Position numbers and translations under genes: made by a program
Sequence record: NC_047809.1
Length of the DNA: 37,775 bases
Source of the DNA: Escherichia phage vB_EcoP_K
Strand: one strand, 5' to 3'
In this document: one piece after another, positions 11,904 through 26,538 of the stretch
How the letters are laid out: each line of letters starts with the position of its first letter
Numbering within the stretch: position 1 is the first letter of the stretch
The notes under the pieces: model-generated
Database searches by the model: none
Told to the model about the DNA's origin: nothing
What the model saw: the letters and a program-made list of their open reading frames with translations, nothing else

Positions 11904-13801
11904 TGGCTAAGGCAAGAGAATCACAAGCGGAGGCTCTTGCCAGATGGGAGATGCTACAGGAGTTACAGCAGACTTTTCCGTATACGGCGGAAGGTTTGCT
12001 TCTCTTTGCAGATACAGTTATCCATAACTTGATTGCAGGCAACCCTCATCTGATTCGTATGCAGGCCGATATTTTAAAGTTTCTATTCTATGGACATAAA
12101 TATCGCCTCATCGAAGCGCCCCGTGGTATCGCTAAAACTACACTATCAGCAATCTATACTGTTTTCCGTATCATCCATGAACCCCATAAGCGTATCATGG
12201 TAGTATCCCAAAACGCCAAGCGAGCAGAGGAAATCGCAGGTTGGGTAGTTAAAATCTTCCGTGGCCTAGACTTTCTTGAGTTTATGCTACCGGACATCTA
12301 CGCAGGGGACCGTGCCTCAGTTAAGGCATTTGAGATTCATTACACCCTACGTGGCAGTGACAAGTCGCCTTCTGTGTCTTGTTACTCAATCGAAGCAGGT
12401 ATGCAGGGTGCGCGTGCAGATATCATCCTAGCAGATGACGTTGAGTCAATGCAGAATGCTCGTACAGCGGCAGGACGTGCCTTGCTTGAGGAACTGACCA
12501 AGGAGTTTGAATCTATTAACCAGTTTGGTGATATTATCTACCTTGGTACTCCTCAGAACGTAAACTCTATCTACAATAACCTACCTACTCGTGGTTACTC
12601 TGTTCGTATCTGGACTGCACGTTATCCCTCAGTGGAGCAGGAGCAATGCTATGGTGACTCCCTTGCACCTATGATTGTGCAGGATATGAAGGACAACCCA
12701 GCACTTCGCTCAGGGTATGGCTTGGATGGCAATAGTGGTGCACCTTGTGCACCTGAAATGTATGATGATGATGTGCTGATCGAGAAGGAAATCTCGCAGG
12801 GTGCGGCTAAGTTCCAGCTTCAGTTTATGCTTAACACTCGCATGATGGATGCTGACCGCTATCCACTACGCCTGAACAACCTCATCTTCACTTCATTCGG
12901 TACAGAGGAAGTCCCTGTGGTGCCTACATGGAGCAACGACTCTATTAACATCATTGGCGATGCACCGAAGTATGGCAATAAGCCTACAGACTTTATGTAT
13001 CGCCCTGTGGCCCGACCTTATGAGTGGGGTGCTGTTACCCGAAAGATTATGTATATTGACCCCGCAGGTGGCGGTAAGAACGGGGATGAAACGGGTGTGG
13101 CTATCGTCTTCCTGCACGGCACATTCATTTATGTGTATCAGTGCTTTGGTGTTCCGGGAGGATACCGCGAATCGTCCCTGAATCGCATTGTGCAGGCCGC
13201 AAAGCAGGCAGGTGTTAAAGAGGTATTCATTGAAAAGAACTTTGGTCATGGCGCGTTTGAGGCCGTTATAAAGCCATACTTTGAACGAGAGTGGCCTGTG
13301 ACTCTGGAGGAAGATTACGCCACCGGACAGAAAGAGTTGCGTATCATTGAAACACTAGAGCCACTAATGGCGGCCCACAGGCTCATCTTCAACGCAGAGA
13401 TGGTCAAGTCTGATTTTGAGTCGGTACAGCACTATCCGCTTGAACTACGCATGTCATACAGCCTTTTCAATCAAATGTCGAACATCACGATTGAGAAGAA
13501 CAGCCTACGACACGATGACCGCTTAGACGCTCTGTATGGCGCTATACGGCAATTAACTTCTCAGATAGACTATGACGAGGTTACACGGATTAATCGCCTC
13601 AGAGCGCAGGAGATGCGCGATTACATCCATGCTATGAACACACCTCACCTCCGTAGGGCAATGCTCTATGGAGATTATGGCACTGAGCGAAGAGTAACCA
13701 ACACTTCCGTGGCTATGCAGCAAAGAGTATACGGTCAGAATTACAGGAGTAAATCGGCAAGCAGAAATACACTTTCTGCAAGGATTTCAAGGACTTATTA
13801 A
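11903..13801 (+). CDS. Terminase large subunit (T7 gp19-like), 632 aa
   Basis: Start overlaps upstream stop (TGATG); ATPase region ..RLIEAPRGIAKTT.. and ..IILADDVES..; C-terminal nuclease-like region; size and synteny. Confidence 0.9.
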   Translation: MAKARESQAEALARWEMLQELQQTFPYTAEGLLLFADTVIHNLIAGNPHLIRMQADILKFLFYGHKYRLIEAPRGIAKTTLSAIYTVFRIIHEPHKRIMVVSQNAKRAEEIAGWVVKIFRGLDFLEFMLPDIYAGDRASVKAFEIHYTLRGSDKSPSVSCYSIEAGMQGARADIILADDVESMQNARTAAGRALLEELTKEFESINQFGDIIYLGTPQNVNSIYNNLPTRGYSVRIWTARYPSVEQEQCYGDSLAPMIVQDMKDNPALRSGYGLDGNSGAPCAPEMYDDDVLIEKEISQGAAKFQLQFMLNTRMMDADRYPLRLNNLIFTSFGTEEVPVVPTWSNDSINIIGDAPKYGNKPTDFMYRPVARPYEWGAVTRKIMYIDPAGGGKNGDETGVAIVFLHGTFIYVYQCFGVPGGYRESSLNRIVQAAKQAGVKEVFIEKNFGHGAFEAVIKPYFEREWPVTLEEDYATGQKELRIIETLEPLMAAHRLIFNAEMVKSDFESVQHYPLELRMSYSLFNQMSNITIEKNSLRHDDRLDALYGAIRQLTSQIDYDEVTRINRLRAQEMRDYIHAMNTPHLRRAMLYGDYGTERRVTNTSVAMQQRVYGQNYRSKSASRNTLSARISRTY

Positions 13802-13823
13802 TTACCGGACACTATAGAAGGAA
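13801..13823 (+). promoter_or_regulatory. SP6-class phage RNAP promoter
   Basis: AATTACCGGACACTATAGAAGGA; predicted +1 G at 13818; overlaps the end of the terminase gene. Confidence 0.7.
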
Positions 13824-13961
13824 GGCCCAGATAATAAGAGAAATAACAAGGATAATATAGGTTAACCTAGGTTATATAGGTATGCCTTAGTATGGGTGTA
13901 CTCCTGTACACCCTATTCCTTACTTCCTTACTATACTTACATAATAGGAGAGAGAGAGAGA

Positions 13962-14261
13962 ATGTCTAATAGTTATAGTACACAACCCCTTACAGGTAAG
14001 TCTGCTCGTAAGCAGATACAACCTGTGAGTGAAGCCCTGATACTTCCTGTAGTTTACGAGGACACTGTTGAGAAGAAAGGTGATGTTATTAATGATGCCA
14101 CCAAATCAGGTAAGCAGAAAGGGGCCATGGTGTGTCTTGATACACATGCTAACCTGGTTATTGCTATCGCAGTTGATGGCAAAGAAGATTCCAATTGGTT
14201 GACAGCTAATAAAGCGGTCACTACTATTACCCCCAGCTTAAGAGGAGAGTTACATGTCTGA
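13962..14261 (+). CDS. Hypothetical protein, paralogue 1 of a tandem pair (99 aa)
   Basis: ATG preceded by GGAGAGAGAGAGAGA; shares ..SGKQKGAMV..L.IAIA.. block with the next ORF. Confidence 0.5.
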   Translation: MSNSYSTQPLTGKSARKQIQPVSEALILPVVYEDTVEKKGDVINDATKSGKQKGAMVCLDTHANLVIAIAVDGKEDSNWLTANKAVTTITPSLRGELHV

Positions 14262-14547
14262 ATATGGAACCACAGGTACTGTTACTGGTCAGGCTTTTCG
14301 AGTAAAAACTGTACAAACCACTGCAACGGCAATCCCTTTGCCTATTGTTGCTGAAGCAGACCTTAAGAAGAAAGATCATCCTATCAACATTAAACACCTC
14401 TCTGGTAAACAGAAAGGCGCCATGGTTGCTGTAGAGAAAGCAGACCAATCCTTGTACATCGCTATTGCACGTGGGAGTGAACCCACCGACAAGTGGGATG
14501 CAACTACTATGAAGTCGGACCCTGTAACACCTGCGGCTGAATTGTAA
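14254..14547 (+). CDS. Hypothetical protein, paralogue 2 of a tandem pair (97 aa)
   Basis: RBS AGAGGAG; shares ..K.INIKHLSGKQKGAMVAVEKADQSLYIAIA.. with the preceding ORF; 8-nt overlap with it. Confidence 0.5.
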   Translation: MSEYGTTGTVTGQAFRVKTVQTTATAIPLPIVAEADLKKKDHPINIKHLSGKQKGAMVAVEKADQSLYIAIARGSEPTDKWDATTMKSDPVTPAAEL

Positions 14548-14561
14548 AGACGAGGTCAATA

Positions 14562-14906
14562 ATGCTTAACAAACACTTCAAGCGCCGTGAGTTCGCTTGC
14601 CGTTGTGGGTGCGGTACATCCACAGTAGATGCTGAGTTACTACAGGTAGTCACAGATGTACGTGAGCACTTTGGTGCTCCTGTAGTTATTACTTCTGGAC
14701 ACCGCTGTGCTAAGCACAATGCTAATGTGGGAGGTGCTAAGAACTCCATGCATCTTACTGGTAAGGCTGCTGACATTAAGGTACAAGGTATTACACCTTA
14801 CCGTGTGTGGTCCTATCTAACAGCACGCTACCCCAATAAATATGGCATTGGGTCTTATCCTAATTTCACCCACATTGATGTAAGAGAGGGATGTGCACGA
14901 TGGTAA
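14562..14906 (+). CDS. Endolysin, zinc metallopeptidase of the M15/LAS type (probable L-alanyl-D-glutamate or D-Ala-D-Ala peptidase)
   Basis: 114 aa with ..SGHRCAKHNANVGGAKNSMHLTGKAADIKV.. and ..FTHIDVRE.. (H-x6-D and distal H zinc ligands typical of LAS peptidases, as in T5 endolysin); followed by membrane protein and spanins. Confidence 0.75.
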   Translation: MLNKHFKRREFACRCGCGTSTVDAELLQVVTDVREHFGAPVVITSGHRCAKHNANVGGAKNSMHLTGKAADIKVQGITPYRVWSYLTARYPNKYGIGSYPNFTHIDVREGCARW

Positions 14907-15014
14907 GATGTATTGAATGGTGCGAGCGCATGGTTGCTCAAGCTGCCGAGGGTGGCAACTATGATGACTGGAAGGACTACTCGGACTTATTAGCTCAATG
15001 GAAAGGGAGATGTA

Positions 15015-15164
15015 ATGAAAAAGCTGTTTAAGTCTAAGAAAGTGGTAGGTGCACTGGTTGCACTGGTGATTGCTCTTGTTTCTGTAGGTCTTGGCGTAGA
15101 CCTAGGTGAAGGTACTGAAGGTTCCGTCACTGACGTGGTATGCCAAGTAATCACCTGTGAATAA
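15015..15164 (+). CDS. Small membrane protein (49 aa), possible second holin/antiholin or lysis accessory protein
   Basis: AAGGGAGA RBS; MKKLFKSKKVVGALVALVIALVSVGLGVDLG.. single predicted TM helix; position between endolysin and spanins. Confidence 0.4.
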   Translation: MKKLFKSKKVVGALVALVIALVSVGLGVDLGEGTEGSVTDVVCQVITCE

Positions 15165-15378
15165 GGTGCTAGAGGTGGTAGCAGGTCTTATTGGCCTGCT
15201 GCTTGCCGCTAAGAAGAAGAAGGAAGAGAAGGAGGCACAAAGTGAGGCGAATCATGCTAGCGACAATCCTGCTGATTGGTTCGCTGATCACTTCAGGGTG
15301 TCAGACGGCGTTACCAGAGAATCCAAAGGTGAAGCCTCTGAAGCCGACGCTTACGGCAGTCTACGAGGTGGACGATAA
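15157..15378 (+). CDS. Putative i-spanin-like protein (Rz-position), unusually short (67-73 aa); start codon uncertain (GTG)
   Basis: N-terminal hydrophobic segment VLEVVAGLIGLLLAA followed by charged region; contains the start of the o-spanin ORF in another frame. Confidence 0.3.
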   Translation: MNKVLEVVAGLIGLLLAAKKKKEEKEAQSEANHASDNPADWFADHFRVSDGVTRESKGEASEADAYGSLRGGR

Positions 15379-15451
15379 AGTCTGCTTCAGTAAGCCTGAC
15401 GCTACAAAATTAGGTATGTACATTCTCTCGCTAGAACGCGGGTATAATTAA
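15254..15451 (+). CDS. o-spanin (Rz1-like outer-membrane lipoprotein), 65 aa
   Basis: GAGG 6 nt upstream; signal peptide MLATILLIGSLITSGC with lipobox-like ITSG|C; short proline-rich mature part (LPENPKVKPLKPT); starts inside and extends beyond the i-spanin candidate (overlapped architecture). Confidence 0.5.
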   Translation: MLATILLIGSLITSGCQTALPENPKVKPLKPTLTAVYEVDDKVCFSKPDATKLGMYILSLERGYN

Positions 15452-15480
15452 TACATAGTTTATGTATCAGTGTCTTACGA

Positions 15481-15503
15481 TTTACTGGACACTATAGAAG
15501 AGA
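15481..15503 (+). promoter_or_regulatory. SP6-class phage RNAP promoter (tailspike operon)
   Basis: ATTTACTGGACACTATAGAAGAG; predicted +1 G at 15498. Confidence 0.75.
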
Positions 15504-15581
15504 TAAGATAGTGCCGTTCTTTTGAGCGGCCTATTACTAGCCAATCTTCATAGGGAGGGTTGGGAAGTAATAGGAGAGTAT

Positions 15582-15917
15582 ATGGCTAAGTTAACTAAAC
15601 CCAAGACAACTGGCTTACTACATAGAGATACTGTACTAGCTACATTATTGGATAATTTACTATCTAAAAGGCGTGTTACATTTGAAGGTGTAGTTCCAAG
15701 TGAAGATACTAAAATTGAGATAGAAGTACCTGCAACAGGAGATTTAGATTCTTCGTGGGCATCACTTGTATCATTAAGTACACCTACACTTTGTACAGCT
15801 TGGATTACTAAAGTGTCAGATACTAGATTAGAAGTACATGTATTCCATACAGCACAAGTTGAAATAGACATAGATGTAGATGTTTACATTCTAGGTAAAC
15901 ACATTGTCAGTGCGTAA
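15582..15917 (+). CDS. 111-aa ORF upstream of endosialidase; probable remnant/adaptor-binding N-terminal module of a second tailspike
   Basis: AGGAG RBS; from recollection, phage K1E carries a 111-aa ORF at this position similar to the N-terminus of the K1-5 K5-lyase tailspike; not verifiable here. Confidence 0.5.
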   Translation: MAKLTKPKTTGLLHRDTVLATLLDNLLSKRRVTFEGVVPSEDTKIEIEVPATGDLDSSWASLVSLSTPTLCTAWITKVSDTRLEVHVFHTAQVEIDIDVDVYILGKHIVSA

Positions 15918-15984
15918 GCACTGCTTTTCGCGCAACTTTTCTTAAAGGTTATCATGATGGTAGCCTTTCAGAAAAGGAGGTTAC

Positions 15985-18420
15985 ATGATTCAAAGACTAG
16001 GTTCTTCATTAGTTAAATTCAAGAGTAAAATAGCAGGTGCAATCTGGCGTAACTTGGATGACAAGCTCACCGAGGTTGTATCGCTTAAAGATTTTGGAGC
16101 CAAAGGTGATGGTAAGACAAACGACCAAGATGCAGTAAATGCAGCGATGGCTTCAGGTAAGAGAATTGACGGTGCTGGTGCTACTTACAAAGTATCATCT
16201 TTACCTGATATGGAGCGATTCTATAACACCCGCTTCGTATGGGAACGTTTAGCAGGTCAACCTCTTTACTATGTGAGTAAAGGTTTTATCAATGGTGAAC
16301 TCTATAAAATCACGGATAACCCTTATTACAATGCTTGGCCTCAAGACAAAGCGTTTGTATATGAGAACGTGATATATGCACCTTACATGGGTAGCGACCG
16401 TCATGGTGTTAGTCGTCTGCATGTATCATGGGTTAAGTCTGGTGACGATGGTCAAACATGGTCTACTCCAGAGTGGTTAACTGATCTGCATCCAGATTAC
16501 CCTACAGTGAACTATCATTGTATGAGTATGGGTGTATGTCGCAACCGTCTGTTTGCCATGATTGAAACACGTACTTTAGCCAAGAACGCACTAACCAATT
16601 GTGCATTGTGGGATCGCCCTATGTCTCGTAGTCTGCATCTTACTGGTGGTATCACTAAGGCTGCAAATCAGAGATATGCAACAATCCATGTACCTGATCA
16701 CGGACTCTTCGTTGGTGATTTTGTTAACTTCTCTAACTCTGCGGTAACAGGTGTATCTGGTGATATGAAGGTTGCAACAGTAATAGATAAGGACAACTTC
16801 ACGGTTCTTACACCTAACCAGCAGACTTCAGATTTGAATAACGCTGGAAAGAGTTGGCACATGGGTACTTCTTTCCATAAATCTCCTTGGCGTAAGACAG
16901 ATCTTGGTCTAATCCCTCGTGTCACAGAGGTGCATAGCTTTGCTACTATTGATAACAATGGCTTTGTTATGGGCTATCATCAAGGTGATGTAGCTCCACG
17001 AGAAGTTGGGCTTTTCTACTTCCCTGATGCTTTCAATAGCCCATCTAATTATGTTCGTCGTCAGATACCATCTGAGTATGAACCAGATGCGGCAGAGCCA
17101 TGCATCAAGTACTATGACGGTGTATTGTACCTTATCACTCGTGGTACTTGTGGCGATCGACTAGGAAGCTCTCTGCATCGTAGTAGAGATATAGGTCAAA
17201 CTTGGGAGTCACTAAGATTTCCACATAATGTTCATCATACTACCTTACCTTTTGCTAAAGTAGGAGATGACCTTATTATGTTTGGTTCAGAACGTGCAGA
17301 AAATGAATGGGAAGCAGGTGCACCAGATGATCGTTACAAGGCATCTTATCCTCGTACCTTCTATGCACGATTGAATGTAAACAAGTGGAATGCAGATGAC
17401 ATTGAATGGGTTAACATCACAGACCAAATCTATCAGGGTGACATTGTGAACTCTAGTGTAGGTGTAGGTTCGGTAGTAGTTAAAGACAGCTACATTTACT
17501 ATATCTTTGGTGGAGAAAACCATTTCAACCCAATGACTTATGGTGACAACAAAGATAAAGACCCATTTAAAGGTCATGGACACCCCACTGATATATACTG
17601 CTATAAGATGCAGATTGCAAATGACAATCGTGTATCTCGTAAGTTTACATATGGTGCAACTCCGGGTCAGGCTATACCTACCTTCATGGGTACTGATGGT
17701 ATTCGTACTATTCCTGCTCCACTTCACTTATCAGGAGAGGTAGTTGCCGCAGATATGACTGTCGAACACCTTACCCTGAAGGCAAGTACAAGTGCTAATA
17801 TTCGCTCAGAGATGCTGATGGAAGGTGAATATGGGTTCATTGGTAAGACTATACCAACGGATAACCCAACTGCCCAACGTGTCATCATCTCTGGTGGAGG
17901 GGGTACAGCAGCAGATACCGGTGCGCAAATTACCTTACATGGAGCAGGTTCTAGTACTTCTAGACGCGCAGTATATAATGCCAATGAGCACTTGTTCCAA
18001 AGCGGGGCTATCATGCCATACAATGATAACGTGTATCCTGCTGGCGGCCCTCGTAATAGATTCACTACTATCCATCTTACAAGTGACCCTATTATTACGT
18101 CTGATGCCACTCATAAGTATGGATCACAAGGTATTGATGAGGGTGTACTAAAGGCATGGGGCAAGGTTGCCTTCAAGCAGTACAAGTTGATTGGAGAGAT
18201 GTCTAGTGGTGTGCATCACACTCACTTTGGTGTATTGGCACAAGACATTGTAGCTGCTTTTGCATCCGAAGGGTTAGATGCAATCGACTTCGGCATTGTC
18301 TCCTTCGAAGAAGGTCAGTTTGGTGTTAGATATAGTGAAATCTTAATCTTGGAGGCTGCTTATACTCGTTATCGTTTAGACAAGTTAGAGGAGATGTATG
18401 CCACTAATAAAACCAGTTAA
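15985..18420 (+). CDS. Endosialidase (endo-N-acetylneuraminidase) tailspike with C-terminal intramolecular chaperone domain, 811 aa
   Basis: AAGGAGG RBS; sialidase Asp-boxes SGDDGQTWS and SRDIGQTWES; C-terminal ..GVHHTHFGVLAQDIV..FGVRYSEILILEAAYTRYRLDKLEE.. typical of the autocleaved chaperone domain of phage endosialidases; 811 aa is the size I recall for the K1E enzyme. Confidence 0.9.
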   Translation: MIQRLGSSLVKFKSKIAGAIWRNLDDKLTEVVSLKDFGAKGDGKTNDQDAVNAAMASGKRIDGAGATYKVSSLPDMERFYNTRFVWERLAGQPLYYVSKGFINGELYKITDNPYYNAWPQDKAFVYENVIYAPYMGSDRHGVSRLHVSWVKSGDDGQTWSTPEWLTDLHPDYPTVNYHCMSMGVCRNRLFAMIETRTLAKNALTNCALWDRPMSRSLHLTGGITKAANQRYATIHVPDHGLFVGDFVNFSNSAVTGVSGDMKVATVIDKDNFTVLTPNQQTSDLNNAGKSWHMGTSFHKSPWRKTDLGLIPRVTEVHSFATIDNNGFVMGYHQGDVAPREVGLFYFPDAFNSPSNYVRRQIPSEYEPDAAEPCIKYYDGVLYLITRGTCGDRLGSSLHRSRDIGQTWESLRFPHNVHHTTLPFAKVGDDLIMFGSERAENEWEAGAPDDRYKASYPRTFYARLNVNKWNADDIEWVNITDQIYQGDIVNSSVGVGSVVVKDSYIYYIFGGENHFNPMTYGDNKDKDPFKGHGHPTDIYCYKMQIANDNRVSRKFTYGATPGQAIPTFMGTDGIRTIPAPLHLSGEVVAADMTVEHLTLKASTSANIRSEMLMEGEYGFIGKTIPTDNPTAQRVIISGGGGTAADTGAQITLHGAGSSTSRRAVYNANEHLFQSGAIMPYNDNVYPAGGPRNRFTTIHLTSDPIITSDATHKYGSQGIDEGVLKAWGKVAFKQYKLIGEMSSGVHHTHFGVLAQDIVAAFASEGLDAIDFGIVSFEEGQFGVRYSEILILEAAYTRYRLDKLEEMYATNKTS

Positions 18421-18553
18421 GCAAGCTGCTGTACTCCAGAACACAGAAGAGCTTATTCAATCAGGACGTGACCCTAAGCAGGCATATGCCATTGCCAAGG
18501 ATGTTCAACGTAGAGTATTGAGTAAGACCTCTGCATCGTCTGCGAAGCAGTAA
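18398..18553 (+). CDS. Possible small ORF (51 aa) overlapping the 3' end of the endosialidase gene
   Basis: ATG with GAGGAG upstream; MPLIKPVKQAAVLQNTEELIQSGRDPKQAYAIAKDVQRRVLSKTSASSAKQ; no homology assessable. Confidence 0.25.
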   Translation: MPLIKPVKQAAVLQNTEELIQSGRDPKQAYAIAKDVQRRVLSKTSASSAKQ

Positions 18554-18613
18554 CACTTAGTCTGCACAAGGGCTGGCTTAGGTTGGCCCTTAGTGCAACC
18601 CAAAGGAGGTTTG

Positions 18614-18769
18614 ATGATTTGGATTCATACTTATGGAGTCGGCCCATTCAAACGTAAGGTACTCAGGAAGATACATGACACTGAAGAGTCTGCACTGGCT
18701 AGCCAGAAGGTTCTTGGTGGAACTGTACAGGCTTACCTGAAGCAACCCAATGGATTCGACTTAGTGTAA
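18614..18769 (+). CDS. Possible small ORF (51 aa)
   Basis: AAAGGAGG RBS 5 nt upstream of ATG; MIWIHTYGVGPFKRKVLRKIHDTEESALASQKVLGGTVQAYLKQPNGFDLV. Confidence 0.35.
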   Translation: MIWIHTYGVGPFKRKVLRKIHDTEESALASQKVLGGTVQAYLKQPNGFDLV

Positions 18770-18829
18770 TCAAATGAGGTAACATGAAAGACCTACTGTT
18801 AGCCCTCTTATGCACAGCATGTATCTATG

Positions 18830-18887
18830 GCCCACACCCTCATGCCCTGTCAAACGCTCAGGAATGGCCCTAAAACGGCCTGTGTAA
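18830..18887. repeat. 58-bp direct repeat, copy 1
   Basis: GCCCACACCCTCATGCCCTGTCAAACGCTCAGGAATGGCCCTAAAACGGCCTGTGTAA; identical copy at 19266-19323. Confidence 0.9.
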
Positions 18888-19025
18888 CAATAGATACAGA
18901 GCTAGGATAGGCTAGATTGGCTAGGTTTAGGGTGTTCCTCCTACTGCATCTTATCACTATTACCTACTCTCAGCGGTCTACCGACCGCGACCTAATTGCA
19001 TCTTATAGCTTTAGCTATGCAATCA

Positions 19026-19160
19026 CTAAGGTCTGGCACTAAGACTAACTAAGGTACACTACTAAGTTGATACTAAGCTAAGCACTAAGGCTTTAACTAA
19101 GGCAACCCACTAAGGCTAACCTAAGCCATCCATCAAGGAATAACCTAAGGTACACGTGAG
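19026..19160. repeat. Array of about 11 degenerate heptamers (A/C)CTAAG(G), genome-terminus-like
   Basis: CACTAAGG, AACTAAGG, TACTAAG.. recur at short irregular spacing; analogous to the CCTAAAG-type repeats of T7 genome ends; four more copies at 19325-19420. Confidence 0.7.
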
Positions 19161-19183
19161 CGAGTGAACGGAGCGCAAGCGGA

Positions 19184-19239
19184 GTGAGGAGCAGTGAGTG
19201 AGGAGCAGTGAGTGAGGAGCAGTGAGTGAGGAGCAGTGA
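19184..19239. repeat. Tandem repeat, 4 x 14 bp (GTGAGGAGCAGTGA) plus partial copies
   Basis: Exact tandem copies visible in GGAGTGAGGAGCAGTGAGTGAGGAGCAGTGAGTGAGGAGCAGTGAGTGAGGAGCAGTGAGTGAAGCG. Confidence 0.9.
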
Positions 19240-19265
19240 GTGAAGCGTAGCGAAACGAACAGATA

Positions 19266-19323
19266 GCCCACACCCTCATGCCCTGTCAAACGCTCAGGAA
19301 TGGCCCTAAAACGGCCTGTGTAA
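19266..19323. repeat. 58-bp direct repeat, copy 2
   Basis: Identical to 18830-18887; copies are 436 bp apart and bracket the heptamer and tandem-repeat region. Confidence 0.9.
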
Positions 19324-19583
19324 GCCCTAAGCGGTTGCACTAAGGCAATCACCTTGTCCAATACTAAGGCGCGCCCTAGCGCTTCCTAGGTGTTCTCCTT
19401 GTGCAGCCACTAAGAGCAGACCTCGGCAAGCCCTAGGCCACCCGTCGAGCTTCCTGCGGCAGCAGGTTGAAGACGGACCAGCCCAGCCCAATTCCCAAGC
19501 CAACCGCAGCGCGTTTAAATAGTCACGGGCAAGAGTGCTACATAGTGCAACGTAAAGTATTAGGCTCAATATGGGTCACGTGT

Positions 19584-19706
19584 ATGATGCCTATTGGCTA
19601 TACTGATACAGAGGCTATCTTCTGCACCGAAAGGGATGCAAAGAAGTTTATCTCTAAGCGTAGAAAAGCTGACTCTTACCAACCCAGAACTATTAAGGTG
19701 AACTAA
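19584..19706 (+). CDS. Short ORF reading into the primase start (open from 19467; start ambiguous), possible 5'-truncated gene remnant
   Basis: Frame open for 79 codons ending TAATG overlap with primase ATG; first in-frame ATG pair at 19584 lacks a clear RBS. Confidence 0.25.
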   Translation: MMPIGYTDTEAIFCTERDAKKFISKRRKADSYQPRTIKVN

Positions 19707-21694
19707 TGGCTATTATTAATAACATCCCGTGCCCTGCCTGCCAGAAGAATGGACACGATAAATCCGGCAATCATCTCATGATATTTGATGATGGTGCTGG
19801 CTATTGTAACCGTGGTCATTTCCACGATAACGGCAAGCCTTACTATCATAAGCCAGATGGTGGCATCGAGATCACCGAGTTGCCTATTACTGGCAATATC
19901 AAATATACACCTTCTCAATTCAAAGAGATGGAGAAGGAAGGGAAGATAAGCGACCCTAAGTTACGCGCCATCGCACTTGGTGGCATGCGTATGAAAGACC
20001 GATGGGAGGTCATGAATGAGCAAGAAAGGGCAGACCAAGAAGCAGAGTGGAAACTTGATGTTGAATGGTTCCTCACGCTTAAGCGTAAGAATCTTGTTTC
20101 CCGACACATTCGCGGCGACATTTGCGCATTGTATGATGTACGTGTCGGACACGATGAAGAGGGTAGAGTCTCACGGCATTACTATCCACGCTTCGAGAAA
20201 GGTGAACTAGTAGGCGCTAAGTGTCGCACATTACCTAAAGACTTTAAGTTTGGTCATTTAGGTAAACTCTTTGGTATGCAAGATCTTTTCGGGATGAATA
20301 CTTTGTCTCACGTGTTAGACAAGGGAAGACGAAAGGATCACTTGCTCATTGTCGGCGGCGAACTGGATGCACTAGCAGCACAGCAAATGCTCCTTGATTC
20401 TGCCAAGGGTACTAAGTGGGAAGGCCAGCCTTACCATGTATGGTCTGTCAATAAAGGTGAGTCTTGCCTTGAAGAGATAGTACAGAACCGTGAACACATC
20501 GCCCAATTTAAGAAGATTATATGGGGTTTTGATGGAGATGAGGTAGGGCAGAAGCAGAATCAGCAAGCGGCTCGCCTGTTTCCTGGCAAATCCTATATCC
20601 TTGAATACCCTTCTGGTTGCAAAGATGCTAACAAGGCATTGATGGCTGGCAAGGCTAAAGAGTTTGTTGATGCTTGGTTTAATGCCAAGTCATCTGATGA
20701 AGTCTTTGGTAGCCATATTAAATCTATCGCATCTCAAAGGGATAAGCTCAAGGCTGCACGTCCAGAGCAAGGGCTATCATGGCCTTGGCCTAAGCTGAAC
20801 AAGGTAACGCTAGGTATTCGTAAGAACCAGCTTATCATTGTAGGTGCAGGCTCTGGTGTAGGTAAGACTGAGTTCCTCCGCGAAGTGGTTAAACATCTTA
20901 TTGAAGAACATGGTGAATCTGTAGGCATCATTTCTACAGAAGACCCGATGGTCAAGGTGTCCCGTGCTTTTATCGGTAAGTGGATTGATAAGCGCATTGA
21001 GTTACCGCCAACCAATGACCCGAAAGAAGACGGATACCGTGAGGTGTTCGACTATACTGAGGAAGAGGCTAATGCCGCCATTGATTATGTAGCTGATACA
21101 GGGAAGCTGTTTGTAGCTGACCTAGAGGGTGACTATTCTATGGAGAAGGTAGAGCAAACTTGCCTAGAGTTTGAGGCTATGGGCATTTCTAATATCATCA
21201 TTGATAACTTAACGGGGATTAAATTAGATGAGCGTGCTTTTGGTGGGAAGGTTGGTGCACTTGATGAATGCGTCAAACGAATTGGTACTATCAAAGATCG
21301 ACATGCGGTTACGATTTTCCTTGTCTCTCACCTTACACGTCCTCCGGCAAACCGTACCCAACACGAAGAAGGTGGCGAAGTTATCCTTTCTGACTTCCGA
21401 GGCTCAGGCGCTATCGGATTCTGGGCATCTTACGCCTTGGGGATTGAGCGTAATACAAGAGCTGAAACGCTTGATGAAAGGACTACCACGTACATCTCAT
21501 GTGTCAAAGACCGCGACCAAGGTATCTACACTGGAACCAAGGTCATGCTTAAGGGTGACATTCAAACCGGACGTTTAATGGAACCACAAGCTCGTACTAA
21601 GTCATTTGATACAGGTGAAGCAAGGCAACAAGAAGTACCTGATTTACCAGACACTATAGAAGGGACTAACTTCGATGAAGAAAGTGAGTTCTGA
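19706..21694 (+). CDS. DNA primase-helicase (T7 gp4-like), 662 aa
   Basis: N-terminal zinc-binding CPACQKNGHD...CNRGHFH; helicase Walker A GAGSGVGKTEF; acidic C-terminus ending ..FDEESEF as in T7 gp4. Confidence 0.9.
   Translation: MAIINNIPCPACQKNGHDKSGNHLMIFDDGAGYCNRGHFHDNGKPYYHKPDGGIEITELPITGNIKYTPSQFKEMEKEGKISDPKLRAIALGGMRMKDRWEVMNEQERADQEAEWKLDVEWFLTLKRKNLVSRHIRGDICALYDVRVGHDEEGRVSRHYYPRFEKGELVGAKCRTLPKDFKFGHLGKLFGMQDLFGMNTLSHVLDKGRRKDHLLIVGGELDALAAQQMLLDSAKGTKWEGQPYHVWSVNKGESCLEEIVQNREHIAQFKKIIWGFDGDEVGQKQNQQAARLFPGKSYILEYPSGCKDANKALMAGKAKEFVDAWFNAKSSDEVFGSHIKSIASQRDKLKAARPEQGLSWPWPKLNKVTLGIRKNQLIIVGAGSGVGKTEFLREVVKHLIEEHGESVGIISTEDPMVKVSRAFIGKWIDKRIELPPTNDPKEDGYREVFDYTEEEANAAIDYVADTGKLFVADLEGDYSMEKVEQTCLEFEAMGISNIIIDNLTGIKLDERAFGGKVGALDECVKRIGTIKDRHAVTIFLVSHLTRPPANRTQHEEGGEVILSDFRGSGAIGFWASYALGIERNTRAETLDERTTTYISCVKDRDQGIYTGTKVMLKGDIQTGRLMEPQARTKSFDTGEARQQEVPDLPDTIEGTNFDEESEF
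21642..21664 (+). promoter_or_regulatory. SP6-class phage RNAP promoter (within 3' end of primase-helicase gene)
   Basis: ATTTACCAGACACTATAGAAGGG; two mismatches to the consensus upstream half; +1 G at 21659. Confidence 0.6.
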
Positions 21695-21710
21695 TTAGTG
21701 TATTTATCGG

Positions 21711-21734
21711 GCTTGTCTCACATGTGAGACAGGC
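21711..21734 (+). promoter_or_regulatory. Conserved palindromic stem-loop, copy 2 (GCTTGTCTCACATGTGAGACAGGC)
   Basis: 17 nt after stop at 21694; same core as 7096, 22888, 27950. Confidence 0.45.
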
Positions 21735-21771
21735 TCTTATTAAGTATATATTAAATAACTGGAGATTGATT

Positions 21772-22455
21772 ATGTATAAATTAGTATTGAATGCAGGTGA
21801 TTATGTTCGTAACATCAATGAAGCCTCACGTCGTTATCGTTGCCGTGGTGTAGTGGATCGTATAAGTGAGAACATGTATCATGTAGAATATGAGGATGGT
21901 ATTAAGGCTTCTTACCACAAGAAAACAGCACATAAATATCTTGAAAAGATTGTAGAGATAAACAATCAATGTAAGTGCATACATGATGAGGTTTGCGATA
22001 AATGTGCTCGCCAGATGCTTAAGAATTTCCTAGCTCCTCTTTATTATGGTGCTGGTCCTCAAACACTAGCAGAGTACATGGCAGAAAAGAAAACCACACT
22101 CAAGAAAGAGCGTCGCAATGTAATCACTGGTAAGACTCAAAGTGAAATGATTAAGCAATGTGGCACTGCATTAGGTGTTACACAGTTCAATACTCGTGCA
22201 TTGGGTAAATCCACAGGGCAAGCTATGGTGAAAATTGGTGAAGCTATGATGCACCCAAATGTGCCTGTGCGAATCTTGGATGTTGACCATGCAATCACAG
22301 AGCATGGCACACCACGGCGTGTAGCTAATAATCATTTCGCCGACACTATAGAAGGTATTATTCGTAAGCAAGGGTTGAAGGGTCTTCACATCTTAAATGG
22401 TGAAGAATTACTGTACCTACCTATCGTTACTGAAGAAACCTACGTGAATATCTAA
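21772..22455 (+). CDS. Hypothetical protein, 227 aa
   Basis: GGAG 7 nt upstream of ATG; coding-like composition; contains Cys/His cluster CKCIHDEVCDKCARQ; no recognisable family. Confidence 0.5.
   Translation: MYKLVLNAGDYVRNINEASRRYRCRGVVDRISENMYHVEYEDGIKASYHKKTAHKYLEKIVEINNQCKCIHDEVCDKCARQMLKNFLAPLYYGAGPQTLAEYMAEKKTTLKKERRNVITGKTQSEMIKQCGTALGVTQFNTRALGKSTGQAMVKIGEAMMHPNVPVRILDVDHAITEHGTPRRVANNHFADTIEGIIRKQGLKGLHILNGEELLYLPIVTEETYVNI
22334..22356 (+). promoter_or_regulatory. SP6-class phage RNAP promoter-like site (within gene 21772-22455)
   Basis: ATTTCGCCGACACTATAGAAGGT; conserved core GACACTATAGAAG, three mismatches upstream. Confidence 0.5.
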
Positions 22456-22485
22456 GGAGTTAATCATGACTAAGGTATTAATTAT

Positions 22486-22683
22486 ATGCGTGGACCTCAT
22501 AAATGCTATGCAGTTGTAGCACCAGATGGTGTCAAGACATATGGTACTTCAAAGGGGTTTGCATTAATAGGTGCCAGTCTTAGTGCAAGTTTTCAGATGG
22601 AACTTTTCGGTCATTGGACTGAAAAAGAGTTCCGTGAGGAGTTTAATGTAATCGGCAGCTTTATGGTGAAACATGCAAAATAA
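22486..22683 (+). CDS. Hypothetical small protein, 65 aa
   Basis: ORF with coding-like composition; weak RBS; a 17-codon ORF with a strong RBS (AAGGAG, ATG 22467) lies just upstream. Confidence 0.35.
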   Translation: MRGPHKCYAVVAPDGVKTYGTSKGFALIGASLSASFQMELFGHWTEKEFREEFNVIGSFMVKHAK

Positions 22684-22882
22684 ACACAGTCTTAAGATGT
22701 TTGATGGTCACGAAGACCTGCAAGCACAAATTACTAACCAAGCCTTCCTGTTTGCACAGTTAACTATGGCTGAAGCAAAGAAGAATAGCCTGACGCGCGA
22801 GCAAGTTATCAAAGAGGCAACTTGGGAGCCACACCAAGGCAAATACATGGGCCAGAAATTAACTGTAACACGCAGTCGATAA
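22673..22882 (+). CDS. Hypothetical small protein, 69 aa
   Basis: ORF overlapping the previous stop; followed directly by palindromic stem-loop copy 3. Confidence 0.35.
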   Translation: MQNKHSLKMFDGHEDLQAQITNQAFLFAQLTMAEAKKNSLTREQVIKEATWEPHQGKYMGQKLTVTRSR

Positions 22883-22887
22883 GTAAA

Positions 22888-22915
22888 GGGTTGTCTCACA
22901 CGTGAGACAGCCTTT
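22888..22915 (+). promoter_or_regulatory. Conserved palindromic stem-loop, copy 3 (GGGTTGTCTCACACGTGAGACAGCC) followed by TTT
   Basis: 6 nt after stop at 22882; stem extends to about 11 bp. Confidence 0.45.
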
Positions 22916-23033
22916 CATCATATTGATTGGAGGTGCATTATGCCACGTGATTATGATTCTGATTGGGATTTCCAAGATTCAATGAACTCAAAACCTGAAC
23001 GTTCAGATGACTACTACGAAACAGAGGCAATGT

Positions 23034-23252
23034 ATGAAAGCTATTAAAGTCAGTAAGGTTTGCTCTTGCGGTAAAGGTTATCGCAGTCGTATTGATGGTA
23101 AGTGTGGGCATTGCAGGTCTAAGAAAGAGGCTGCTTTGTTTGATAAGTACCACAATGAATTAGCATATAACTATCCTCATCTAACACCTAATTCTTTATT
23201 AGGACTTGGTTATAGGGTTAAATACTTTGGAGCAATCTATGAAATCAATTGA
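23034..23252 (+). CDS. Small zinc-ribbon-like protein, 72 aa
   Basis: CSCGKGY...CGHCRSKK (CxC..CxxC); GAGG upstream; overlaps DNAP start by 14 nt. Confidence 0.4.
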   Translation: MKAIKVSKVCSCGKGYRSRIDGKCGHCRSKKEAALFDKYHNELAYNYPHLTPNSLLGLGYRVKYFGAIYEIN

Positions 23253-25785
23253 TTGGAAGAAGGAAGCAGAAGGCCGCATCTTAGTGATGGATTCTGAGGC
23301 TAAAGGCCTGCTGGATGCTATCCGATATGGCCACCGCGAAGATGTGCACATCATTTGCTGCATGGATTTGCTTACTACAGAGGAGTTCCTCTTCTTTGAC
23401 CCATACGAGATGCGTGACCCTGAAGCAAGAGAACGCCTAAAAGAATGGGAAGGCCATCAAGATGGAACATTGGTTGACGGTGTTAACTTCCTTAAGCACT
23501 GCGAAGCCATCGTCTCACAGAACTTCCTAGGGTACGACGGCCTTCTATTTGAGAAAGCATTCCCTGATATCTGGAAAGGCTTTAACTATACCGAGAGACG
23601 CGGCAAGGGCAGACTCCGCGCTGACCTGTGTCCGGTACGCGTCATGGATACGCTGGTCATGAGTCGCCTGTTAAACCCCGATAGACGCCTCCCTCCGCAA
23701 GCATACGCCAAAGGCATGGGTAACGTAGCCCCTCACTCAATTGAGGCGCACGGCATTCGTATAGGCCGTTATAAGCCGGAGAACGAGGATTGGTCTAAAC
23801 TAACTGACCACATGGTACATCGTGTACGCGAGGACGTGGCGATAGGCCGTGACCTATTCCTCTGGCTATTTAACGGAGAATGGACGGAGCACAAACGCCG
23901 TGGCGTGAATAAACGCACTGGCCTAGGTATTGAGACAGCCTTCCACATGGAGTCCATTGTGGCGCTGGAGATGAGCCGTCAGGCCGAGCGTGGATTCCGT
24001 CTGGATATAGATAAAGCATTAGCACGATGCGAGGAATTGGACGCTAAGATTGATGAGACAGTCGCAGCGTTCCGTCCGCACATGCCTATGCGTATCAAGT
24101 CTAAACCTTTTAAACCGGAAGAAAAGAATGAAGTATGCCAACGCGCAAATGAGTATGGAGCTAGCAACAATATACCTACTGTCCTTGACCCCTCTCACTT
24201 TCTTCACGCAGAGAGACGAGGAGATCGCAAGACAGTATGGAGTGTCACTACTAAGTCTGGTGATTGGTCGGCTAGCGTCAAGAAAGACTTTCCTCACCTT
24301 AGAGGAAACCGTAATGACACGCCAAGCATCAAGTGGATTGGCGCTTACTCGCCTGTTACTTTCGAAGAGATTCCCTTGGGTAACAGGGATACAGTTAAGC
24401 AAGTGCTCTATGATTATGGATGGAAAGGTGTTGAATTTAACGATACCGAGCAAGCGCATCTCGATGAGCATGGCGTATTACCCAAGCCTTGGAGTGGGAA
24501 GATAAATGAAAAGTCCCTTACTTTATGGCAAGAGAGAGCCGCACGTGAAGGTAAAACAGTCCCTGATTGGTGCTTGGGTATCGCTGCATGGTACATACTC
24601 GTATCCCGTCGTGGTCAGATCCTCAACCGTGGTGACGTTGAAGCCTTCGACCAGAAGGGGGTGTGGCCTTCGCAAGCTGGTATACGAAAGTGTCGCGGCC
24701 TTGTACCTGTAGCATTTAACAAGGAGTTAGGAATCAATGCGCAGCAATACTACGAAAGGTACGGATGCTGGCCTACGTCAGACAAGGATGACGGAGAATG
24801 GCGTGTGCCAGCTATTGCTATTAGTATTGGAACTTCTACGTTCCGTATGCGTCATCGTAACGTGGTTAATATTCCTGCCCGTGGTTTGTATCCTTTACGT
24901 GATTTATTCATAGCCGGTAAAGGTAAGCTAATCCTTGGTTGTGATGGTGCTGGTCTTGAACTACGTGTACTGTCTCACTTCATGAATGACCCTGAATATC
25001 AAGATATTGTACTGCATGGTGACATTCACACCCATAATCAAATGAAGGCTGGTCTTCCTAAGCGTGACATGGCGAAGACATTTATATATGCCTTCCTATA
25101 TGGGTCTGGTATAGCTAACCTTGCAGCAGTATGTGGTGTTACTGAGGAAGAAATGGAGGAAGTTGTGGCAAGATTTGAGGTTGAACTACCATCTCTTGCA
25201 CGTCTTCGTGAGAATGTTATCGCACAAGGTAACAAGTTTGGCTACCTACAAGCACCTGATGGTCATTGGGGTCGCATCCGTATGTCTGGTGGTGAACTTA
25301 AAGAGCACACTATGCTTAACGTACTACTCCAGATGACTGGTTCTCTGTGTATGAAATACGCATTGGTCAGAGCGTTTGCAGTGATGCGCAAGGAAGGTGT
25401 GGCCTTAGATAGCATGGGAAACCCTTGCGGTATAGCTAACGTGCACGATGAAATCCAGATGGAAGTCCCTGAAGATGAGGTCTTGTATCTCAACTACGAC
25501 TTGCCTTTCACCTTAGAAGGGTTCGAAACAGAGAAGGCTGCTGTGAAAGCAGTGTTCGATGCAGAGGAGAAACGTGTTCATGTGGATTCTGAAGGACGTA
25601 TGTGGTCTGCTGCAAATCTCGTTAGTGTTGATGCTGATGCTGGTGTACTTCATTGCCAGCGTCGTTATCACCGTGCAGGGCATATCATTGCCGATGCAAT
25701 GACTTGGGCAGGTCAGTACCTGAAGATGCGTTGTCCGATGGCAGGTGAGTATAAGATTGGTGCAAGTTGGAAGGAAACACACTGA
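23239..25785 (+). CDS. DNA polymerase, family A (T7 gp5-like), 848 aa
   Basis: GGAG 6 nt upstream; 3'-5' exonuclease-type motif ILVMDSEAKGL; polymerase motif B ..RDMAKTFIYAFLYGSG.. and motif C ..VHDEIQMEV.. Confidence 0.9.
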   Translation: MKSIDWKKEAEGRILVMDSEAKGLLDAIRYGHREDVHIICCMDLLTTEEFLFFDPYEMRDPEARERLKEWEGHQDGTLVDGVNFLKHCEAIVSQNFLGYDGLLFEKAFPDIWKGFNYTERRGKGRLRADLCPVRVMDTLVMSRLLNPDRRLPPQAYAKGMGNVAPHSIEAHGIRIGRYKPENEDWSKLTDHMVHRVREDVAIGRDLFLWLFNGEWTEHKRRGVNKRTGLGIETAFHMESIVALEMSRQAERGFRLDIDKALARCEELDAKIDETVAAFRPHMPMRIKSKPFKPEEKNEVCQRANEYGASNNIPTVLDPSHFLHAERRGDRKTVWSVTTKSGDWSASVKKDFPHLRGNRNDTPSIKWIGAYSPVTFEEIPLGNRDTVKQVLYDYGWKGVEFNDTEQAHLDEHGVLPKPWSGKINEKSLTLWQERAAREGKTVPDWCLGIAAWYILVSRRGQILNRGDVEAFDQKGVWPSQAGIRKCRGLVPVAFNKELGINAQQYYERYGCWPTSDKDDGEWRVPAIAISIGTSTFRMRHRNVVNIPARGLYPLRDLFIAGKGKLILGCDGAGLELRVLSHFMNDPEYQDIVLHGDIHTHNQMKAGLPKRDMAKTFIYAFLYGSGIANLAAVCGVTEEEMEEVVARFEVELPSLARLRENVIAQGNKFGYLQAPDGHWGRIRMSGGELKEHTMLNVLLQMTGSLCMKYALVRAFAVMRKEGVALDSMGNPCGIANVHDEIQMEVPEDEVLYLNYDLPFTLEGFETEKAAVKAVFDAEEKRVHVDSEGRMWSAANLVSVDADAGVLHCQRRYHRAGHIIADAMTWAGQYLKMRCPMAGEYKIGASWKETH

Positions 25786-25901
25786 TGGACAGGTTTGATA
25801 TTGTTTGCCTATTCTCCACCTTCTTTCTTATATTCCTTATGCTTGCTTGCTATGGAAGTATGCGATTAGATATACCTGATGAAGAGGAGGGTTACGATTG
25901 A
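25785..25901 (+). CDS. Possible small membrane protein, 38 aa
   Basis: ATG overlapping DNAP stop (TGATG); hydrophobic core CLFSTFFLIFLMLACYG. Confidence 0.3.
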   Translation: MDRFDIVCLFSTFFLIFLMLACYGSMRLDIPDEEEGYD

Positions 25902-25999: not shown

Positions 26000-26008
26000 G
26001 TTATACTC

Positions 26009-26030: not shown

Positions 26031-26067
26031 TATGAATAACTTATTCCTACTTATTTAGTCTAACATG

Positions 26068-26532: not shown

Positions 26533-26538
26533 GGAGTT

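Follow-up and report, generated by a model that had tools for sequence, protein, structure and literature searches.

A rearranged terminal-repeat module in the deposited genome of Escherichia phage vB_EcoP_K

Podophages related to K1E (AM084415) and SP6 (NC_004831) carry an exact direct terminal repeat (TR), 288 bp long in K1E and 174 bp in SP6, which in both ends in GGGCTA and is followed by TCTGTT. By analogy with T7, such a TR would let replicated genomes join into concatemers, on which the phage RNA polymerase would pause at ATCTGTT and terminase would cut both TR edges, yielding unit genomes with a TR at each end. ATCTGTT starts at the last TR base in K1E (288) and SP6 (174) and one base past the 160-bp TR in T7 (161); it is a class II pause/termination signal, the function of which has been demonstrated for T7 RNA polymerase only. 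On the gene-sense strand of intact relatives, the last late genes are followed by right-end unique sequence and the TR with ATCTGTT at its inner edge, after which come a short spacer, an array of CTTAG heptamers, a conserved block, a host-type early promoter and the early genes including that for RNA polymerase.

Baig et al. (2017) described vB_EcoP_K (KY295897) as a genome of 38,025 bp with 46 CDSs that is devoid of RNA polymerase, the 1.1 protein and Ocr; RNA polymerase is missing from vB_EcoP_K in their Table S2, too. The published length equals that of the window analysed here—the whole stretch of 37,775 nt in record NC_047809.1—plus 250 bp, the 250-bp TR having been inferred solely via BLAST against K1E (Baig et al. 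2017). Libraries were made with Nextera XT and vB_EcoP_K was given as a single contig at 263x (Baig et al. 2017; ENA samples ERS1810218 for vB_EcoP_K and ERS1810214 for vB_EcoP_B). According to the authors of PhageTerm, Nextera-type libraries lose terminus information; the present data are thus unsuitable for terminus calling, and the read-start check suggested in the initial annotation would fail on them.

Homology to the left genome end of K1E

Between 18827 and 19513, the window contains a module that is homologous over its whole length to the left genome end of K1E. Window positions 18888-19513 match K1E 622-40 on the minus strand (87% identity), and the TR homologue within them (19264-19513, minus strand, 250 bp, corresponding to K1E TR nt 288 down to 40) is matched by both K1E TR copies, nt 40-288 and 45003-45251, at 87-91% identity. 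The repeat annotated in mutPK1A2 (286 bp) is homologous to the same 250 bp. A left-end unique block at 18888-19025 (minus strand, K1E ~485-622), which includes GGTCTACCGACCGCGACC (18975-18992) and the dyad GCATCTTATAGCTTTAGCTATGCAA (18998-19022), is near-invariant among K1E-like phages out to SP6, which likewise keeps the heptamer array and the boundary motif. Homology of the entire block to genome ends of characterised relatives shows that its repeat landscape is not a product of chance: the region is the TR/packaging module of a K1E-like podophage (SP6 group, Vectrevirus) in rearranged form. The likeness to T7-like terminal repeats and concatemer junctions proposed in the initial annotation therefore stands in so far as this is a heptamer-rich TR region of an SP6/K1E-like phage, but not as a simple join. 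Such a feature is of a known kind, the ordinary TR region of K1E/SP6-like phages; it is the record itself that is anomalous.

All of the features listed earlier are real, with small corrections. The roughly 15 CTAAGG-type heptamers correspond to 15 CTAAG cores in 18990-19420, all on the plus strand, with A or C preceding 14 of them and G following 8; CTTAG does not occur on the plus strand of that interval. CTAAG density is 34.8 per kb here versus 1.8 per kb elsewhere. Eleven cores form the heptamer array proper at 19026-19149 (minus strand, hence CTTAG when read in native gene sense; 11.9 nt apart on average), which is conserved in K1E, mutPK1A2, SHAK7704, SP6 and the sister phages B (vB_EcoP_B) and C, and the remaining four lie at 19327-19414 inside the TR. 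The exact 14-bp tandem array holds up with corrected limits of 19182-19243 (minus strand, unit GAGTGAGGAGCAGT, period 14, 4.4 copies, 100% matches). Since its copy number differs among the window, B and K1E (1.4 copies each), and C and SHAK7704 (none), it is a variable-number repeat, expanded here by 42 nt relative to the otherwise near-identical B; apart from this expansion, only three substitutions separate the region from B. The flank at 19380-19500 is indeed GC-rich: at 62%, against 45% for the window as a whole, it ranks within the top 0.2% of 121-nt windows. The octamer GGCGCGCC is present once, at 19368-19375, although it is not a conserved element because K1E, C, SHAK7704 and mutPK1A2 read GGCGTGCC there; the only AscI site is at 19368. 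Besides GGCGCGCC and the GC-rich tract, the TR homologue contains four CTAAG cores and one copy of the direct repeat (19263-19323). An Rfam search returned nothing beyond a sub-threshold match to a miRNA family (E = 0.63), and minus-strand ORFs of 80-81 aa that have no Pfam match were taken as spurious. Queries for exact matches to the primase/helicase and endosialidase proteins found no entry.

The 58-bp direct repeats at 18830-18887 and 19266-19323, previously read as bracketing the region, are exact and belong to a fuller repeat of 61 nt (18827-18887 and 19263-19323, 436 nt from start to start) with one mismatch (18829/19265). As a bracket they are not natural. The second copy is the inner end of the TR, while the first, on the minus strand and equivalent to K1E 229-289, is an extra copy that is absent at this place from all relatives, 45 of which carry a single 61-nt element per TR. 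Accordingly, the 58/61-bp repeats are not the terminal repeat.

The module is reverse-complemented with respect to all flanking genes, and this is so in this window only: in K1E, B, C, D, R, SHAK7704, KY435490, mutPK1A2 and others it lies on the opposite strand relative to the genes. The strand assignment of the genes in the window was checked and an error excluded, and none of the phage records searched for colinearity with 18500-19700 covers more than 57% of that length. The putative class II signal of T7-type RNA polymerases, ATCTGTT at 19258-19264 on the minus strand (AACAGAT on the plus strand), is consequently turned around as well. As part of TATCTGTT (minus strand, 19258-19265, the sole copy in the window) it is preceded by A, C or T, as such signals are, but it is orientation-dependent and faces against all transcription rather than along it, given that ten promoter cores and all genes are on the plus strand.

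Furthermore, the module is incomplete. Missing from the window are the outer TR nt 1-39, which carry the left terminus TCTCGCC..., the conserved CCCCATATGGGG and the CCCCATA(T)GGG(G) element common to T7, SP6 and K1E, as well as ~110-150 nt of right-end unique sequence (B 22631-22781). Homology to the established TR of a relative and a same-strand heptamer array adjoining the repeat both mark the region as a TR region, whereas a complete repeat with its outer terminus and right unique sequence, placed in gene sense between late and early genes, is lacking. The region is thus very probably an inverted, truncated K1E-type end module that contains no working junction.

Breakpoints and missing early region

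Three junctions delimit the rearrangement. At the left boundary, motif R1 (18821-18830, plus strand, GTATCTATGG) is the last native right-end sequence, and junction J1 (18827-18835) consists of a 9-nt overlap, ATGGCCCAC, common to this right-end sequence (B 22790-22782) and the reverse-complemented TR inner end (ATAGCCCAC). J1 replaces the C-terminal half of a small plus-strand ORF (18784-18873), which reads MKDLLLALLCTACIYGP|HPHALSNAQEWP here and ends in MKDLLLALLCTACIYGPLLVYLYLAGIILV in vB_EcoP_B. Past the extra 61-nt copy, junction J3 (18887/18888, ...GTGTAA|CAATAGATAC) joins K1E 229 to K1E 622 with no microhomology and leads into motif R2 (18888-18897, minus strand, CAATAGATAC, the reverse complement of GTATCTATTG). 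Junction J2 (19513/19514, ...GCAGCGCG|TTTAAATAGTC) fuses reverse-complemented TR nt 40 to K1E 7213, i.e. B 15855, with 1 nt of microhomology.

GTATCTAT occurs in the window only at 18821 (plus strand) and 18890 (minus strand), on either side of the extra copy, such that R1 and R2 form a 9/10 inverted repeat around it; in B, the TR region has the two GTATCTAT copies on either side of it as direct repeats. That these sites flank the extra copy shows the breakpoints to be non-random. The R2 site is also disrupted in the library of sister phage B, and the GTATCTAT(G/T)G motifs resemble the TATCTGTT pause/cut signal. A flip in the assembly graph between inverted repeats was ruled out, both 61-nt copies being direct, as was homology-driven misassembly or recombination as the cause of the inversion, R1 and R2 being native direct repeats and the overlaps no longer than 9 nt. 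Likeness of R1 and R2 to the Nextera mosaic end or adapter, judged by eye, reaches at most ~9 of 13 bases, too weak to account for breaks. The exact J1, J2 and J3 strings had no match in a viral contig collection, and nothing similar turned up in collections of plasmids and complete E. coli genomes. Among metagenome contigs, J2 gave one 20-mer match (WNFW01167226.1), a chance hit, as BLAST detects no similarity between this contig and the window.

K1E 623-7212, i.e. 6.1-6.6 kb with the early promoter, the early genes and RNA polymerase, is absent (the early block of B is 15856-21959). Neither tblastn with K1E gp7 nor blastn with the K1E and B early regions gave a match in the window, which shows no tblastn or blastn trace of gp1-gp8 or RNA polymerase. 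Instead, J2 is followed by a 3′ remnant of gene 8.5 (19515-19705, plus strand; residues 10-72 and the stop codon, without start codon or promoter) and directly thereafter by the primase/helicase gene (19706-21694, plus strand). Scanning 18400-19800, which lies just ahead of the primase gene, for sigma-70 promoters detected no promoter-like site, with 1.5 expected by chance, so that the TTGACA within the 61-nt element has no convincing -10 partner; a terminator scan of the same interval gave one weak terminator-like hairpin, at background level. Ten GACACTATAG phage-polymerase promoter cores are retained ahead of middle and late genes, all on the plus strand, and a longer promoter consensus has 8 matches versus 0.04 expected by chance. 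The terminase is T7-type (Pfam PF22530), and the single-subunit RNA polymerase of its own that an autonomous member of the Autographiviridae encodes is not found in the window. With the module backwards, stripped of its outer 39 bases and adjoining a gap where RNA polymerase belongs, the deposited genome as written cannot be a working, autonomous phage genome.

Origin of the rearranged record

Telling real rearranged DNA from an assembly-only artefact would take the sequencing reads. At a probability of roughly 45%, we favour the view that the junctions existed in real DNA and that the record represents a non-autonomous defective derivative of a vB_EcoP_B-like phage, which would have dominated the sequenced vB_EcoP_K stock. 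Such a genome would have arisen by breakage at the two motifs and head-to-head rejoining, plus deletion. In the window, the segment from TR nt 40 to K1E 622 stands inverted between the sole pair of GTATCTAT(G/T)G motifs in the genome, accompanied by 52-61 nt of filler copied from the TR inner end, and a contiguous ~6.8 kb is missing across the other inversion junction. The filler gives rise to the '58-bp repeat pair', and the missing block held TR nt 1-39, the remaining right unique sequence, the early promoter, gp1-gp8 and RNA polymerase. Set against a defective interfering genome, which lacks essential trans-acting genes but keeps cis-acting signals, the picture is mixed: RNA polymerase, which is essential, has been lost together with the early promoter, and promoter cores persist along with most of the TR module, but that module is truncated and inverted. 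A minority helper phage encoding RNA polymerase would probably carry the defective genome.

The smallest k used by SPAdes is 21. The junctions share just 9, ~0 and 1 nt, which is below this and any assembler k and makes a de Bruijn misjoin unlikely. Against a real defective genome stands the expectation that it should propagate poorly, because it is without TR nt 1-39, where the left terminus lies and CCCCATA(T)GGG(G) is found, and without the normal left cut site. In addition, the end expected to enter the cell first has no inward-pointing promoter once the TR is flipped, which, from T7 biology, should block transcription-driven DNA entry. The lack of J1, J2 and J3 matches in the viral contig collection also speaks against it. 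A more specific version, in which an RNA-polymerase-less genome is packaged and dominates the stock, and in which site-specific breaks after both GTATCTAT(G/T)G motifs allowed its TR module to turn around, appears unlikely. A literature search on the T7 'pacB' packaging signals returned only PacBio-related papers.

Alternatively, the rearrangement may be a product of assembly and finishing, a competitor that we hold to be only slightly less probable. The true vB_EcoP_K would then be normal and B-like, its ~44-kb genome having both early genes and an ordinary concatemer-junction region; the short-read assembly would have broken near the terminal region, a sub-kilobase contig would have been mis-oriented, the filler would stem from gap filling and the early-region contig would have been dropped. 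A small contig placed the wrong way round would show up as just such an inverted segment with an assembly break on either side, and finishing joined contig ends with Ns that were then replaced from remapped reads (Baig et al. 2017). Errors are visible in records that this pipeline produced: that of vB_EcoP_B contains (A)20 twice, duplicates 39 nt and carries an orphan 27-mer exactly at motif R2—with J3 no more than 1 nt from this artefactual insertion, and with B itself the sole match of the 27-mer among E. coli and phage records—and the vB_EcoP_K record is short of one base at circle closure, which leaves a frameshift in the capsid gene. The TR of SHAK7704, another circular assembly, is garbled, and Elek et al. 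(2023, PMC10438801) documented spurious ~79-bp repeats near TRs in short-read, SPAdes-based assemblies for 7 of the 10 T7-like phages that they studied. An artefact would also dissolve the paradox of a plaque-forming SP6-like phage without RNA polymerase: the plaques and one-step growth curves obtained with vB_EcoP_K (latent period 6-8 min, burst ~30; Baig et al. 2017) mean that viable phage was present in the stock, and the assembly contains no early region for it. Yet, a unique 6-kb region at ~260x vanishes only if its contig is discarded, whereas the authors report a single contig; true read pairs could not have suggested J2, as it joins sequences natively 6.6 kb apart; and the same pipeline delivered full-length genomes for the sisters B, C, D and R.

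The view of Baig et al. (2017), according to which vB_EcoP_K is an autonomous SP6-like phage that naturally lost RNA polymerase and early genes and hence grows more slowly, is highly improbable. It accords with the growth of the stock and with the absence of the gene from the assembly, but the ten phage-polymerase promoter cores still precede middle and late genes, 18400-19800 upstream of the primase gene offers no host-type promoter, the early promoter region appears from our reading of the sequence to be deleted too, and the TR is inverted and without its outer end. Nor has the genome been rewired, as the remainder is 99.8-100% identical (in most 500-nt bins) to the RNA-polymerase-encoding phage B. 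Finally, the initial supposition amounts to an ordinary concatemer junction in a circularly closed assembly, at which the 58-bp repeats would mark the joined genome ends. It would suit the homology that K1E and SP6 show at their TR and left end, as well as the fact that short-read assemblers do collapse TRs into a circle, but is refuted by orientation and breakpoint mapping: the site runs against the genes in this window alone, is devoid of TR nt 1-39 and of right unique sequence, continues at K1E 7213 with primase directly following and the early region gone, and repeats an element that is single per TR in 45 relatives, the real TR being 250-288 bp.

The loss of RNA polymerase has been invoked to explain the slower growth and poorer therapeutic performance of this historic therapeutic phage (Baig et al. 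2017). Because the genome deposited as KY295897 cannot be autonomous, this reasoning rests on either defective DNA or a mis-finished assembly, and reference collections and taxonomy built on KY295897 inherit the problem. If physical, the rearrangement constitutes a rare natural experiment on the cis sequences that a T7-type phage needs. Were a packaged defective genome with site-specific breaks at the two motifs confirmed, it would be the first defective-interfering-type genome described for a T7/SP6-like phage and a natural deletion map, implying that K1E nt 40-622 suffice in cis for replication and packaging in either orientation; it would also point to a secondary cleavage site for terminase, another nuclease or gyrase.

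Comparison with known systems

The assembly artefacts described by Elek et al. (2023, PMC10438801) resemble the present case in an unexpected short repeat near the direct TR, short-read assembly with SPAdes and the company of other finishing errors; they are, however, simple extra repeats of ~79 bp, whereas the window combines an inversion, a loss of ~6 kb and motif-specific breakpoints. With defective interfering or cheater viral genomes the window has in common that it is shortened, that an essential trans-acting gene (RNA polymerase) is missing while promoters, structural genes and most packaging sequences persist, and that it is apparently abundant in a serially propagated stock; it differs in the truncation and inversion of its packaging module, which would be expected to impede maturation and DNA entry. 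To our knowledge, no genome of this type has been described for the Autographiviridae, and a literature search for one in this family found none.

With the T7 concatemer junction, the K1E-type module has in common a short exact TR starting with TCTC..., a CCCCATAGGGG-type element around nt 25-40, ATCTGTT on the inner edge of the TR and, just inside and after the TR, a 7-mer array with ~11-13-nt spacing, whose counterpart in T7 is the CCTAAAG array. Beyond these motifs there is no sequence homology, the heptamer being of the CTTAG rather than the CCTAAAG type; moreover, the pause signal of the window opposes transcription and the outer TR element is missing. The closest match remains the left end of K1E and SP6, with the same TR inner end (...GTGGGCTA|TCTGTT), CTTAG array and conserved block containing GGTCTACCGACCGCGACC. 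The window departs from this left end in that the module is reverse-complemented, TR nt 1-39 are missing, the inner 61 nt are present once more, three 14-mers are added and primase comes next, in place of the early promoter and early genes.

Identity and layout of the record

Sequence comparison places the window among the K1E-like podophages of the SP6 group (genus Vectrevirus). Positions 1–18610 are colinear with K1E (AM084415) 25531–44850 and positions 19513–37775 with K1E 7213–25484, so that the window represents a closed circle, its end meeting its start within the major capsid gene. At this closure (37775/1), one C is missing compared with the sister phage vB_EcoP_C; the capsid ORF has 354 codons as deposited and 405 with the C restored (K1E gp31, 401 aa). 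The missing base, probably a finishing error, fits the 87% capsid alignment length given for K_27 in Table S2 of the original paper (PMC5582158). That paper lists vB_EcoP_K (KY295897), a sister phage, with 38,025 bp and 46 CDSs, without RNA polymerase, 1.1 protein, Ocr or homing endonuclease, and puts the terminal repeats (TRs) at 250–289 bp as inferred by BLAST (Baig et al. 2017, PMC5582158). The TR-homologous stretch in the window measures exactly 250 bp.

Identity to the sister phage vB_EcoP_B (KY295891) is 99.8–100% in most 500-nt bins. The sole long stretch diverging from B, C and K1E alike is 3501–4000 (ORF 3369–4133, gp34-like internal virion protein; ~86% identity), meaning that more than a deletion separates the phage from the sequenced B isolate. 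The large terminase gene (11900–13801, 633 aa) is uninterrupted, as in B; a homing-endonuclease gene divides its counterpart in K1E and the sister phages C, D and R (gp40A/40.5/40B).

An inverted and truncated end module

The repeats described in the initial annotation are indeed there: a direct repeat pair, exact over 58 nt within 61 nt carrying one mismatch (18827–18887 and 19263–19323), a perfect 14-bp tandem array of 4.4 copies (19182–19243) and a GC-rich 3′ flank (19380–19500; 62% GC, top 0.2% of windows). The roughly 15 heptamers correspond to 15 CTAAG cores (19026–19414), every one on the + strand and none reversed, at ~19 times the background density. The octamer GGCGCGCC occurs once, at 19368, and is not conserved among relatives.

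The TR measures exactly 288 bp in K1E and 174 bp in SP6 (NC_004831), ending in both with ...GGGCTA, followed by TCTGTT. Base-level mapping along the + strand of the window shows native right-end sequence up to ~18826–18835, where a first junction, J1 (18827–18835), has a 9-nt overlap, ATGGCCCAC. There follow the reverse complement of K1E 289–229, corresponding to the innermost 61 nt of the TR, up to a zero-overlap junction, J3 (18887/18888), and then the reverse complement of K1E 622–289, which carries the heptamer and 14-mer arrays as well as a block whose conservation extends to SP6. Next comes the reverse complement of TR nt 288–40, which ends at a junction with a 1-nt overlap, J2 (19513/19514), beyond which the window resumes at K1E 7213 with the final 63 codons of gene 8.5, followed from 19706 by primase/helicase. 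By this mapping, the second copy of the 61-nt repeat is simply the TR inner end and the first is an extra copy, present at that place in 0 of 45 relatives, so the pair does not bracket the region as initially proposed. Among the relatives' records, those with two copies are mostly linear and have one copy per TR; several have the 61-nt element ending at their last base.

The 14-mer is present in 1.4 copies in B and K1E and in none in C and vB_EcoM_SHAK7704 (OR594181), compared with 4.4 in the window, and is thus a variable-number repeat. SHAK7704 is an 'UNVERIFIED' circular record with a 148-bp tandem duplication inside the TR (7300–7680), a truncated right end and a feature table offset by ~8.1 kb from the sequence, placing, for instance, 'primase/helicase' over the TR region. 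A ~140-bp block (18888–19025), which in intact relatives separates the heptamer array from the early promoter, is near-invariant in K1E-like phages out to SP6, in contrast to the diverged TRs; within it, GGTCTACCGACCGCGACC and a small dyad stand out (18975–18992 and 18998–19022), and the block is a candidate cis-acting site for packaging or origin function.

All relatives examined carry the homologous block on the other strand with respect to their genes, and no record exceeds a 57% colinear match to 18500–19700. Four upstream CTTAG cores (18556–18760) point opposite to the region's 15, as expected for an inverted segment. Absent from the window are TR nt 1–39 and ~110–150 nt of the unique sequence at the right end (a full count on B, 22631–22781, gives 151 nt). 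Besides the left terminus, the lost TR portion carries a CCCCATA(T)GGG(G) element; T7, SP6 and K1E (nt 1–48 compared) all start with TCTC and carry this element at ~nt 25–40. The conserved outer-TR element is exactly the part that is absent. ATCTGTT, the class II signal for pausing or termination by T7-type RNA polymerases, begins at the final TR base in K1E and SP6 and one base past the TR in T7; in the window (19258–19264, minus strand), its orientation is wrong. As a functional junction, the locus is therefore deficient in completeness as well as in orientation and position.

The early region, K1E 623–7212 (B 15856–21959), left no tblastn or blastn trace in the window. It contains gp1–gp8, the RNA polymerase and a host-type early promoter (read by eye). 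Yet ten SP6/K1E-type promoter cores, GACACTATAG, remain ahead of middle and late genes, all on the + strand (11703, 13808, 15488, 21650, 22342, 26076, 26845, 27991, 31587 and 36725), the longer consensus giving eight matches against 0.04 expected by chance; an eleventh K1E core (6832) falls in the missing block. The genome is thus wired for an enzyme that it does not encode, while its remainder is nearly identical to the RNA polymerase-encoding B. As published, vB_EcoP_K cannot be an autonomous phage.

Breakpoints and proposed rearrangement

The position of the breakpoints is non-random: the window's only two occurrences of GTATCTAT, at 18821 (+) and 18890 (−), immediately flank the additional 61-nt copy. 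The corresponding pair in B is arranged as direct repeats, GTATCTATGG and GTATCTATTG, which enclose the TR together with the right unique sequence and the left unique block. The simplest description is an inversion of the segment between both motifs, with a 52–61-nt filler copied from the TR inner end, and a single contiguous ~6.8-kb deletion across the other inversion junction. Since direct repeats cannot give rise to an inversion by homologous recombination or slippage, what is left is breakage at both motifs with head-to-head joining, or a non-biological origin. The B record has anomalies within 1 nt of the J3 position (21939–22047): two (A)20 runs, a duplicated 39-mer and a 27-mer, ATTCCAAACGTGAAGGGGAGAAAAAGG, matching no other phage or E. 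coli record. C, D and R are normal there.

Origin of the structure and known systems

We give a real, defective DNA species a probability of roughly 45%. K was reported as a single contig at 263x (PMC5582158). The junction overlaps are far below any assembler k, J2 joins sequences 6.6 kb apart that true read pairs could not suggest, and the four sister phages assembled normally in the same workflow. Ranking second, an assembly or finishing artefact is a serious competitor. By analogy with T7, a truncated, flipped TR should block maturation and cell entry in the T7 manner, together with a leading end that, as written, has no inward-pointing promoter. An artefact is also suggested by the closure frameshift in K, the junk sequence in B, the N-joining step in finishing and SHAK7704 as another garbled circular assembly. 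Furthermore, the K stock forms plaques (PMC5582158), and spurious repeats are documented near the direct terminal repeats (DTRs) of T7-like phages in SPAdes-type assemblies (PMC10438801). PhageTerm is of no help here because the libraries are Nextera. Of the initial reading, the likeness to T7-like terminal-repeat regions stands, but a plain junction of merged ends is very improbable for a locus that is inverted, truncated and devoid of the early region; an autonomous phage without RNA polymerase is scarcely credible given the retained promoters.

In the literature, vB_EcoP_K appears in the original paper alone, without remark on an inversion (PMC5582158). The element belongs to a known kind, the DTR and concatemer-junction region of SP6/K1E-like phages. 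Its architecture parallels that of T7, whose CCTAAAG array corresponds to the heptamer array, and the terminase is of the T7 type. New here is the finding that, at this locus, the vB_EcoP_K record is inverted, truncated and non-autonomous and has its breakpoints on a unique motif pair.
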